IMG/VR virus record: IMGVR_UViG_2718218139_000008 | Strand: one strand, 5' to 3' | Source of the DNA: a virus | Taxonomy: Duplodnaviria > Heunggongvirae > Uroviricota > Caudoviricetes | Length of the DNA: 63,885 bases | Shown here: one piece after another, positions 24,001 through 27,000 of the stretch | Numbering within the stretch: position 1 is the stretch's first letter | How the letters are laid out: each line of letters starts with the position of its first letter | Program-made: the position numbers

Positions 24001-27000
24001 CCATAATACGCATCACTGCCGGTTTTATTTCTGCCGGGAGTTTTCTTAACGCCGCCACGCGATCACACCGACTGAGTGCATATTCTGTCAACAATTCTGT
24101 TGCCCGCTCTCTGTCATTCATACTAATGCCCATTTTCCCAAGGAACGCAGAAAACCCCATCTCAGCCCAATTCTGTGTCATGCCCTGCGCGGCCATCACA
24201 TCAGTGATACTCAGCGTATCTTTCGACGTTGAGGCCGATGCATCAGTCAGGCCGGGGGATTTTGGGGAGTAGTATTTCGGTAAATCTTCCAGTTTCATTT
24301 TTTGACCTGCCCTTCAAGCATTATGGGGTAAATCTTCACCCCCAGACGTCCACCAGATACTGGCTGAGCACGAACGATATTGATTTCATCAAACTGCTCG
24401 TCGTCCATTAGCAACCCCGCATGCGTCAGCGCATCCAGCGGCGCTTTCAGAATATTGTCCAGGTCACGGCGGCGCTTATCCGGTGGCTCGGCAATAATCT
24501 TTATCGCCAGCCTTCCGGACAGGCTTAATTTCAGCCGCTGCTGGCGAACAATAAGCGCCACAGCCCGGCGATAACGCTCACCGGCTTTTGATACAAAATA
24601 TGTGCTGCCACGACGTCGCCAGTAGGTGTTCACCGTCGGCGGGTAAAGCAAAACAAACTCTATACGCATCAGTAACCTCTTTTACCCGAGCACGCCGGTT
24701 GCAAAGGCGTGATCAAGAAAACGAAAAATTAAATCAACCTGGGAACCATGCTTTTCTTCGAACGCCAGCGGATCCGCATGAAGCTCGTTGTGATGCTCCC
24801 GACACAGCGGTAGCGTGAAAATATCGTGGGATTTTGTTCCCATTCCACCCTGACCATGACCAATCAGATGATGAGGATCGTCCGCTGGCTTACCACAACA
24901 CGCACACGGCTGTGTCTTTACCCAGCGTGTGTATTTCTCATTTACCCAGCGGCGACGTTTAGGTCGTTTCATGAAGGATTCCGGAGACTCCGGATCAACG
25001 GCAATGCTGACCACCGTCTTTTCCTGTGGTGGGTTCTGTTGCTGGTGGGTGTGAGGCGGTAGCGCAATATTTTTTGTGCGCTGCTTCAGTATGCTGGTGG
25101 CGGTCTGTTCTCCCGGTATGATGTCGCTTTCACGGTATACGGAGCGGATTTTTTCCGCCGGTAATCCCAGAGAGCGACGCGATACTGCCTCAGGTAATGC
25201 GTCCACCACCTGATTGCAGACTGCCCACCAGGATAATTCAGCCAGCGATAATTCCCGCTCCTGCGTGCCATTCATTACATGGCGTATGACGTCAATCATC
25301 CAGGCTGTCAGATTTTGTTGAGTAAGTTGCTCAAGTGATTCGGAGGTCTGGTCGCGCAGCTGGTTGTCGCAGTGCCAGCACAACACCATTGCGCCAGCAC
25401 CGTAACTGTGAATAACGGTTTCGCTGTGATGATAATCGCCGTGTGGCCACTGGCAGGATTTCACGTGACGTAATAACCAGTCAGACAGTGCACCAGCGCC
25501 GCCAGCTGCACGAATCACCCGCTCATCGCTGAAAAATGGCAGCAGTGATTTATCTTCCGCCAGCGGCTGGCGAACAGTAGGAACCGCTCCAGATGGCAGC
25601 GCCCGCATGTTTTTCGGTTCCGGCTCCACCAGCACCCTGCCGCGATGAAAAACTGGCAATGATTCACGACCGGGCTTAAGGACCACCAGCCCGAGTTCCG
25701 GAACCAGAACAGGTCGAAGTAATACCCGCACATTACCTCCAGACGCGCTGACGGTAGCAGGCATGTGTCCGTGGCAGATGTGCACGAACAGGAAGATATA
25801 CAGAAACGGTCCAGGTCAGACGATCAGCGTTCAGACTCCGCTCCACACGGACACCGCGACGCAGATACGCCTCTTGAAGCATATCTGCCTCATCGATCGT
25901 ACAGAACAGATAGTGAAACCAGCCATACTGAGGCGCACGAAAACGCCTCCCCTGCTTAATTTCCGGGTCGGCTTCAGAATTGTGGGATTTTATGTGTTGT
26001 GTCATCGGATTCTCCGGTGACAGCAGGTGTCAGTTGTTCAGGCTGACTGCGCGAATTGTAAGGCAATACGCCGGAATGTACAAACAGAAAACCCGTCAGT
26101 AAGACGGGCTTAACAAGCAGGGGCGGTTACTTTAATAATTTCAGTGCCTTTACATCAACTTCAACACTGCTCAGGTCTTTATCAATTTCACCCTCAATTC
26201 TTACTTTGTCTTTCGGAGAAACATTCTGCCCGGCCCATACGCTGTCATCAATATCCGTGACAATTGTCCCGCTATTGTCACGAAACTCATAACGTTCATC
26301 ACCCACTTTTTTAACGATGCTCCCTTCAAGGATAACCCATGCATCATCCTTCAGTTCTTTTGCCTGCGCTACTGTTGAACGCTCTGCTTCTGGCCCCTGG
26401 AAACCACCCTGCTGTGCAAAAGCGCCAAAAGACACACCGGAAATAAGTGCTGCAATCAATACCTTTTTCATTCATAGTCCTCTTTCAGAGATGAACATTC
26501 AAACAGCATTTTCAGTATGGTAAAGCGCGGGTGCGTTGAGGATGCCTGACACATCAGAGGTGGCGGGAGATTACTCCCCCGCCTGGTCTCTTACTTCTCA
26601 GATTCGTAGTCTACGAAGACAGCGACCTCCGTCTGACCGGTTCGGATTCGCACCTCGCAGAGGTCTTTCCTCGTTACCAGTGCCGTCACTATGACGGTTA
26701 AACAGATGACGATCAGGGCGATTAACATCGCCTTTTGCTGCTTCATAGCCTGCTTCTCCTTGCCTTTCGGCACGTAAGAGGCTAACCTACATGTGTTCAG
26801 CATGGATTGAGCCTCAGATTAATGTTAAGCGTCTTGCAGGACGCGTAATGTTAACTGGGGCTTTTCTCTATCTGCCGTTGGTGTTCATGCCCGAGGCAGA
26901 TAGCCTCAAGCACCCGCAGCAATTCTACTTAACTATCCTTTTCCCGCAAACCGTTTTTATCCCCAGCGGCAAATCGAATACACCACCAGCGCCACCGCCA

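Follow-up and report, generated by a model that had tools for sequence, protein, structure and literature searches.

Among the closest described relatives of the two loci reported here is hokW-sokW of phage 933W and of the Sakai prophage Sp5, studied in Sp5 by Takada et al. 2021 (PMC8621323). HokW was toxic, its neutralisation by the cognate Sok was reported, and a 71-nt SokW RNA was seen on northern blots. Protection was abolished by a mutation of the sokW -10 box ('pro-less'), partly returned with sokW supplied in trans, and was partly dependent on RNase III and Hfq. Upon induction by mitomycin C or heat, SokW vanished and HokW was produced in a RecA-dependent manner. HokW appeared approximately 1 h ahead of the endolysin, and deletion of the locus halved phage release (PMC8621323). 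Toxicity was also reported for the HokD coding sequence (bioRxiv 10.1101/2025.08.07.668861). The 933W record annotates mokW, hokW, and sokW, the latter as a 71-nt misc_RNA.

We analysed a 63,885-nt stretch of DNA (IMG/VR record IMGVR_UViG_2718218139_000008, hereafter the window) that contains two loci of this family, copy 1 and copy 2. An earlier sequence-only reading had placed them in two prophages, and two separate lambdoid remnants were indeed found. The window starts in ydfJ, at 99.8% identity to E. coli. The annotated Qin prophage occupies the ydfJ region in K-12, where it presumably interrupts this gene. Prophage 1 (~1.9 kb to 41.5 kb of the window) lies at the same chromosomal site and carries DicF as Qin does. 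Its first part contains an ORF for an NleG effector, genes for tail fibre, portal, capsid, and terminase, and Rz; these are followed by a NanS-type esterase gene, tRNAs, Q, RusA, and DUF968, and then by a YgiW/BOF gene, hok, genes for replication, a region of the cI/cro type, DicF, an exonuclease gene, and a truncated integrase gene. Prophage 2 is a shorter remnant (about 46.6–62.7 kb), in which a NanS-type esterase gene, tRNAs, an AraC-type gene, a CAAX protease gene, RusA, DUF968, and three cargo genes lead to hok, with a DUF551 gene, DUF1627, and an inverted int-exo segment beyond it. The two remnants have in common the order DUF551 gene – hok – ... – DUF968 – RusA – (Q) – tRNAs – NanS-type esterase, and in both, hok is co-oriented with the early-right operon leading to Q. 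Both prophages are defective and cut by insertion sequences (IS), namely nine IS3-family copies of 1.26 kb, 100% identical to one another, and two elements of the IS66 family. Copy 2 adjoins an RmrT/RmrA-like candidate defence or toxin–antitoxin (TA) module.

The two copies share a block of 445–447 nt at 93.7% identity (26519–26963 and 55939–56383) whose flanks are unrelated, and each therefore forms a separate cassette, longer than the open reading frame (ORF) the sequence-only reading had marked; that interval covers the mok/hok ORF only, not the whole locus. The cassette is ~410 nt long (about 26527–26950 in copy 1 and 55947–56371 in copy 2) and contains a putative hok promoter, a 5' tac element predicted to pair with a 3' fbi element, mok, hok, and a convergent candidate Sok gene. 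The reading frames are as follows.

26591–26803, minus strand: mok-type frame of copy 1, 70 codons, in frame with hok, with GAGG 8 nt 5' of the AUG
26591–26746, minus strand: hok of copy 1, 51 aa, HokW allele
56011–56223, minus strand: mok-type frame of copy 2, 70 codons, with GAGG 8 nt 5' of the AUG
56011–56166, minus strand: hok of copy 2, 51 aa, same as K-12 HokD

Both ORFs proposed as hok-family toxin genes were present on the minus strand, each encoding 70 aa. The translation of copy 1 (26591–26803) is MLNTCRLASYVPKGKEKQA followed by MKQQKAMLIALIVICLTVIVTALVTRKDLCEVRIRTGQTEVAVFVDYESEK, and that of copy 2 (56011–56223) is MLDTCRLASYVPKGKEKQA followed by ...VAVFTAYEPEE. Hok corresponds to the last 51 codons of either ORF, with its own AUG (MKQQKAML...) preceded by AAGGAGA. 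Toxins of the family are peptides of ~50 aa with an N-terminal hydrophobic helix and the conserved C-terminal region of Pfam PF01848 (HOK_GEF). The matches to this profile, with 79.8 bits (E 1.1e-22) for copy 1 and 81.6 bits (E 3e-23) for copy 2 against a cut-off of 22 bits, are far beyond chance. When compared by tblastn to K-12 HokD, Hok of copy 1 was 92% identical, and Hok of copy 2 was 100% identical over 51 aa. The upstream in-frame extension, previously described as mok-like, is likewise present in both copies: the 70-codon frame opens 5' of hok, overlaps hok in the same frame, and has a Shine–Dalgarno (SD) sequence of its own. In 933W, mokW is annotated at the site equivalent to that of the copy 1 frame, and the in-frame extension of 19 codons was kept in 31 of 40 unique phage cassettes.

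Copy 1 was 98.7% identical to phage 933W over 521 nt. Within the hokW/sokW transcription unit, two nucleotides differed: one falls in the loop of the Sok hairpin, the other in the 3' UTR. No differences were present in the coding sequences (CDS) of Hok and Mok, in the Sok promoter, or in the 5' tail of Sok, the hok CDS being that of hokW itself. The downstream neighbour, a YgiW/BOF gene, is also alike. The settings differ: the 933W cassette is located at the attR end and has the same orientation as int, across attP, whereas the copy 1 cassette belongs to the nin region, with a DUF551-like gene on one side and DUF968-RusA-Q on the other; its prophage occupies the ydfJ (Qin) site and, unlike 933W, is disrupted by IS. 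The oligonucleotides used for Sp5 (PMC8621323) can be placed directly on copy 1. The sokW northern probe YO-592 matched 26795–26824 exactly, the hokW probe YO-597 matched 26758–26787 exactly, and primer YO-421, which was used for the 'pro-less' mutant, replaces exactly the TAACCT -10 box that we propose for copy 1. By analogy, the search for an antisense RNA has in effect already been run on the copy 1 allele, on northern blots of the near-identical sokW (PMC8621323), and the RNA was there. Sok expression is shown for the near-identical sokW only, and the Sok allele of copy 2 is a prediction. By their sequences, copy 1 is the hokW/sokW allele and copy 2 is an intact hokD-type allele.

The sequence-only reading expected a Sok-like antisense RNA opposite the leader, and a candidate gene with promoter, tail, and terminator hairpin was located there in both cassettes.

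26760–26788, plus strand: predicted Sok promoter of copy 1, -35 TTGCCT (26760–26765), 17-nt spacer, -10 TAACCT (26783–26788)
26795–26865, plus strand: predicted Sok antisense RNA of copy 1, 71 nt, coordinates taken from the sokW misc_RNA of 933W
56180–56208, plus strand: predicted Sok promoter of copy 2, TTGCCT, 17 nt, TAACCT, same as in copy 1
56215–56285, plus strand: predicted Sok antisense RNA of copy 2, 71 nt, equivalent of copy 1 Sok

The candidate promoter is located inside the mok/hok SD region, and the start point is 6 nt 3' of the -10 box. The predicted RNA folds into a single-stranded 5' tail of 9–14 nt and a long hairpin followed by UUUUCUCU, with UUUU directly after the hairpin in both copies. 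By complementarity, the tail covers the start codon of mok together with the spacer that follows the mok GAGG. The folding energy was -31.5 kcal/mol (z = -5.2) for copy 1 and -32.9 kcal/mol (z = -6.2) for copy 2, and none of 200 shuffled sequences folded as well.

Conservation of these signals was assessed on an alignment of 12 loci that included both copies, 933W, an IncY P1-like plasmid, K-12 sokC, sokB, and sokE, and plasmids of Salmonella, Cronobacter, Klebsiella, and Citrobacter. The TTG of the -35 box, the spacer of 17–18 nt, A and T in the -10 box (TAnnnT), the start point, and the GGGGCUUU terminator foot were invariant or nearly so, and the interior of the stem was variable yet still paired. 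The Sok coordinates were collinear with sokW, sokC, sokB, and sokE, and the curated 5' end of K-12 sokC aligned to the same G as that of sokW. The Sok-strand hairpin exceeded its hok-strand counterpart in stability by 5.8–11.6 kcal/mol in 10 of the 12 loci, because of one to four G-U pairs that become A-C mismatches on the other strand. This asymmetry argues for selection on the predicted antisense transcript itself. We relied on per-sequence folds and the comparison between strands rather than on column-based covariation in MAFFT alignments, because the helices of the hokD and R1 types differ by a bulge and the loops by an insertion of 16–20 nt.

Two readings of tool output were rejected at these loci. 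A scan for sigma-70 promoters and terminators called neither the Sok promoter nor the Sok terminator of either locus. The former was missed because its -10 box, TAACCT, matches the consensus at three of six positions, which is below the threshold, and the latter because its stem has bulges. We therefore rejected this null result as proof that Sok is absent; homology, the signals themselves, and their conservation across the 12 loci located in both leaders the promoter and terminator that the sequence-only reading had suggested searching for. The blank plus-strand scans would be in keeping with 70-codon ORFs that arose by chance or are genes for unremarkable small proteins, in either case lacking an antisense regulator, but the Pfam and Rfam matches, the z-scores of the folds, the promoter and terminator conservation across the 12 loci, and the SokW experiments all contradict this explanation, and we regard it as wholly improbable. 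We likewise rejected the Rfam 'sok' match as the Sok gene. In K-12, the RF01794 match (L006 602–754) is on the minus strand, which is the hokC/mokC strand, and curated sokC (653–711) is on the plus strand. The model, matching the hok sense strand, thus describes the hok mRNA leader and not the antitoxin gene.

Read as a leader model, RF01794 (gathering score 59) matched the minus strand of both copies, at 26741–26915 in copy 1 (113.5 bits) and at 56161–56336 in copy 2 (117.5 bits), which establishes a leader of the hok/sok type in each. The features of the proposed hok transcripts are the following.

26922–26950, minus strand: putative hok/mok promoter of copy 1, -10 TAGAAT (26927–26922), weak -35 TTTGCG/TTGCGG (26950–26944), assigned by reading
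56343–56371, minus strand: putative hok/mok promoter of copy 2, assigned by homology to copy 1
26527–26915, minus strand: predicted full-length hok mRNA of copy 1, ~390 nt
26915–26904, minus strand: tac of copy 1, GGGUGCUUGAGG, predicted to pair with fbi
26541–26529, minus strand: fbi of copy 1, CCUCAACGCACCC, predicted to pair with tac
26583–26562, minus strand: 3' stem-loop of copy 1, within the hok mRNA
55947–56336, minus strand: predicted full-length hok mRNA of copy 2, ~390 nt, with tac at 56336–56325 and fbi at 55961–55949
55925–55942, minus strand: intrinsic terminator of copy 2, AACCCGC-TTCG-GCGGGTT followed by TTTG, just 3' of fbi

The putative hok promoter of copy 1, which a simple promoter scan did not call, is located upstream of the Rfam leader match, 6 nt from its 5' end, and is conserved across both copies and 933W. 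The terminator of copy 2 is common to K-12 hokD and missing from copy 1, where a generic scan found no recognisable intrinsic terminator 3' of fbi; the 3' end of the copy 1 mRNA is therefore uncertain. Minimum free energy (MFE) folds of the full-length mRNAs paired nucleotides 1–12 with the 3' end in copy 1 (z = -7.7) and likewise joined the 5' and 3' ends in copy 2 (z = -8.2). An alternative pairing of the 5' 22 nt with the 3' UTR scored slightly better in RNAduplex for both copies; the full-length MFE folds were preferred for defining tac-fbi. In both copies, the 5' end was predicted to refold locally once the last ~35 nt were removed, which corresponds to the switch from tac/fbi to the tac stem described for R1 hok (PMC9841398). 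A duplex between the 5' end and the 3' UTR, with an energy of -23 to -28.5 kcal/mol, was present in nine of the nine complete loci examined. The tac:fbi differences between loci are compensatory, GGGUGC:GCACCC in the hokD/hokB group corresponding to GGCGC:GCGCC in the R1-like group, and hokB shows a further paired difference (CUGAGA:UCUCA). Both copies are thus predicted to possess a structured leader and long-range tac/fbi pairing.

All sequence elements are present, intact, and conserved in both cassettes, and we consider it very probable that both loci are complete hok/sok modules working by the mechanism of the family, as summarised in PMC9841398. Under this mechanism, a weak promoter would produce a stable mok-hok mRNA of ~390 nt, which tac-fbi pairing would lock in a full-length form that is untranslatable and resistant to Sok. 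Slow 3' trimming would remove fbi and allow the 5' end to refold, which would make the mRNA both translatable and accessible to Sok. The constitutive TTGCCT-17-TAACCT promoter on the opposite strand would meanwhile supply a short-lived Sok RNA of 71 nt, the single-stranded 5' tail of which would pair across the mok ribosome-binding site and start codon, blocking translation of mok and thereby the coupled translation of hok; the duplex would be cut by RNase III. Should Sok synthesis stop, Hok, a 51-aa inner-membrane peptide, would be made, and the cell would be depolarised. For R1 hok placed in the chromosome, deletion or mutation of the Sok promoter is lethal or selects suppressors in hok/mok (PMC9841398). 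The half-lives of the RNAs, processing at the 3' end, coupling of translation, and cleavage by RNase III are inferred from the family.

What such modules do in these prophages is a separate question. By analogy with hokW-sokW, the most likely role is production of Hok at prophage induction, hastening lysis. The role in phage release seen for Sp5 may not apply here because both prophages are broken by IS, and cassettes in such remnants may persist mainly through their addictive, selfish character. The cassettes could also be relics that are intact in sequence and physiologically silent, having arrived recently with the prophages: their RNAs would perhaps be made, but Hok would never be released in meaningful amounts. 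Several chromosomal hok loci have been reported to be silent, no post-segregational killing was seen for the chromosomal hok/sok loci tested earlier, as cited in bioRxiv 10.1101/2025.08.07.668861, and the identical IS copies cut and rearrange both prophages, so functions coupled to induction have probably been lost. Against this, all regulatory elements of the two copies are intact, the block comprising the Sok promoter and hok SD shows no differences in 48 nt between them, neither has an inactivating IS insertion or truncation such as those in K-12 hokA, hokC, hokD, and hokE, and hokW-sokW, which is near-identical, shows activity at its native locus (PMC8621323). We judge silence to be unlikely.

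Another explanation is that the main role of the modules is not in lysis by their own phage but in abortive-infection defence against other phages or in stabilisation of prophage DNA (addiction). R1 hok/sok lowers T4 plating, as cited in PMC8621323, hok is enriched in prophages (23% observed vs 5% expected; bioRxiv 10.1101/2025.08.07.668861), and the RmrT/RmrA-like module is next to copy 2. In the same survey, hok was not enriched in the neighbourhood of defence systems, and the only direct test of the HokW allele revealed a positive effect on release of the phage's own particles (PMC8621323). Defence or addiction as the main role is doubtful in our estimation, and a contribution of Hok at induction is the reading we prefer.

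The absence of relBE, the pair that accompanies hokD in K-12, was stated in the sequence-only reading and holds: K-12 RelB and RelE yielded no homologue when searched against the whole window with tblastn (best E = 0.8). Neither a RelE mRNA interferase nor a RelB is found next to hok, the upstream neighbours of which are a 27-aa ORF and DUF551-type genes. The further suggestion that hok was retained in the two prophages without relBE probably reverses the history. K-12 hokD (relF, of the relB-relE-hokD operon) is homologous to copy 2 at 56180–55921 only (260 nt, 99.2%), a segment comprising the hok SD, CDS, 3' UTR, fbi, and terminator, and in K-12 the end of relE abuts the hok SD. Since this homology stops at 56180, K-12 hokD has no Sok promoter; it also lacks the leader, the mok start, and Sok, whereas the copies in the window have all four and no relBE. 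Consistently, Rfam found no sok leader in K-12 Qin. Among complete E. coli genomes (n = 5426), 4027 carried at least one copy of the intact leader with the hok start, and 1166 carried the relE-hokD junction, which makes the relBE-linked form a derived minority arrangement. By our alignment, K-12 hokD is thus a truncated form whose leader, mok start, and sok were lost to the relBE segment, and the cassette without relBE is, as far as alignment and genome counts indicate, the usual state and not a loss.

The 26 differences between copy 1 and copy 2 are unevenly spread.

26795–26811, 17 nt: Sok tail / mok initiation region, 6 differences between copies
last 27 nt of hok: 6 differences between copies
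26747–26794, 48 nt: Sok promoter / hok SD block, 0 differences between copies

Six differences within the 17-nt tail correspond to a binomial P of 4e-4. Counted over the first 20 nt of the Sok tail, copy 2 differs from copy 1 at six, and its tail allele is present in other IMG/VR contigs. The predicted 20-nt tail duplexes had energies of -37.3 and -35.0 kcal/mol for the cognate pairs and -19.6 and -17.5 kcal/mol for the non-cognate ones. In a set of 40 unique cassettes from 57 IMG/VR contigs and the window, the 17-nt tail was the peak of diversity (nucleotide diversity 0.32 vs 0.09 overall). It ranked third of 392 sliding windows, the top four of which were all within 2 nt, and at least 14 Sok tail alleles were present.

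This pattern fits a diversification of antisense specificity and could equally reflect relaxed constraint between two doubly constrained blocks. We put forward, tentatively and as a possibility we would not favour at present, that the Sok tail and mok initiation region form a specificity 'barcode', which would insulate the two co-resident copies from each other, and/or that N-antiterminated read-through silences the Sok promoter on induction. In the latter case, N-antiterminated early transcription would run through the cassettes in the hok sense, from pR to Q here and from pL-int across attP in 933W; if true, silencing of the convergent Sok promoter by read-through would explain the RecA-dependent loss of SokW. 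Tail diversity also provides a simple, testable handle on cross-talk among the many hok/sok copies of pathogenic E. coli.

The loci are already known in kind: they are real but ordinary prophage hok/sok cassettes. They carry little weight as a discovery, given that mokW, hokW, and sokW are annotated in 933W and were characterised in 2021 and that a survey of hok enrichment in prophages exists; only the recognition of the 17-nt Sok tail as a diversity hotspot of prophage cassettes adds something mildly new. There are practical consequences for annotation. Such loci are usually labelled 'Hok/Gef family protein' only, with Sok and mok omitted, and exact Sok coordinates are now given; a hit to the Rfam 'sok' family falls on the sense strand of hok and is not to be taken for the antitoxin gene; and K-12 relBE-hokD, as a truncated special case, is a poor reference for prophage hok loci.

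Compared to the classical systems, the two copies are alike in plan to R1 hok/sok and to K-12 hokC/sokC and hokB/sokB, all of which combine a tac-fbi lock, a mok frame overlapping hok, and a convergent Sok. In R1, the K-12 loci, and the copies in the window, the 5' end of Sok overlaps the mok start by about 9–11 nt, and a terminator hairpin with a U tract comes after it. The differences are in detail. HokW is 44% identical to R1 Hok (PMC8621323), and mok is in frame with hok in the window copies and in mokC but out of frame in mokB. The tac/fbi pair reads GGGUGC/GCACCC in the window copies instead of GGCGC/GCGCC, and in the prophage hokD/hokW group an insertion of 16–20 nt lengthens the Sok hairpin, giving a Sok of 71 nt vs 56–60 nt.

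The Rfam family annotated as the sok antitoxin (RF01794) matched the hok sense strand at both cassettes of the window (26741-26915 for copy 1 and 56161-56336 for copy 2) and at the K-12 hokC/sokC locus (L006, 602-754), with the match stopping at the start codon (AUG) of hok. Within the L006 match, the curated sokC is found on the opposite strand. Automated annotation based on RF01794 would assign Sok to the wrong strand.

The Tyr47 codon of hok, with its next base, occupies the following positions:

26606-26609, minus strand: Tyr47 codon and next base, hok copy 1
56026-56029, minus strand: Tyr47 codon and next base, hok copy 2

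In both copies, Tyr47 is encoded by UAC followed by G, matching the motif for A-to-I editing by TadA; in hokC, hokD, and hokE, such editing has been reported to convert this Tyr codon to Cys (PMC5630033). The copy 1 codon was predicted to lie in a hairpin loop of 7 nt, CUACGAA; the same heptamer is found at the edited site of hokB, which is reported to equal the tRNA-Arg loop (PMC5630033). For copy 2, the predicted loop was 9 nt long (CUUACGAAC).

Immediately upstream of each cassette is a short hydrophobic ORF of 27 aa. The two are mutually homologous, and both share an ATGA overlap with the stop of the preceding gene; genuine small membrane proteins may be encoded here:

26957-27040, minus strand: 27-aa ORF upstream of copy 1, MTWSEAFTTAGIAMAVALVVYSICRWG
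56553-56636, minus strand: 27-aa ORF upstream of copy 2, MNWPEAFAITGVAMAIAFLVYVICRWG

A clean intrinsic terminator was kept in copy 2 (55925-55942) and in K-12 hokD. No recognisable intrinsic terminator was found 3' of the fbi element of copy 1 (26472-26528), nor in 933W. As a YgiW/BOF gene starts ~55 nt past this fbi, hok transcripts of copy 1 may read through into it.

Immediately downstream of hok copy 2 is an RmrT-like ORF, and after it comes an RmrA-like gene in two separate ORFs (together 54112-55875, minus strand). This stretch resembles a defence or TA module, with one component frameshifted, and is a candidate for one:

55195-55875, minus strand: RmrT-like ORF (PADLOC RmrT, E 1.7e-24)
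54594-55214, minus strand: RmrA-like ORF, first piece (profile positions 2-188 of 370)
54112-54570, minus strand: RmrA-like ORF, second piece (profile positions 205-343 of 370)

Both prophages were truncated by IS3-family and IS66-family elements, and prophage 2 has its int-exo segment inverted. Self-BLAST of the window mapped seven 100%-identical copies of the IS3-family element (~1.26 kb, with ORFs of 100 and 272 aa), one of which adjoins an ORF (7411-8175) with internal direct repeats of ~162 nt (93-96% identity, 7416-7950). STnc100 was present in both prophages, AgvB (anti-GcvB) in prophage 1 only, and DicF in prophage 1; phage tRNA genes numbered two and three. At its left end (1-2903), the window starts within ydfJ, the region of Qin in K-12, and then carries an NleG-type effector ORF in prophage 1; contig PVMG01000001.1 of GCA_003015325.1 has the same gene order.

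6154-7419, 11204-12470, 17140-18405, 41496-42761, 45372-46599, 58781-60045, 62685-63885: IS3-family copies
38853-41186, 42926-45342: two IS66-family elements
22057-22311, 49084-49274, 34840-34891: prophage sRNA genes
1983-2903: NleG-type T3SS effector ORF, prophage 1

The arrangement in the Stx2 phage 933W was compared over 275-3374 of L001 (933W) and 29-1363 of L098. There, hokW and its cassette are at the attR end and int is at attL, on the same strand; given this position and strand, the pL transcript would reach the cassette after int once the phage is excised and circularised. In the window, copies 1 and 2 both lie within the pR-to-Q operon. These placements may bear on induction-coupled loss of SokW.
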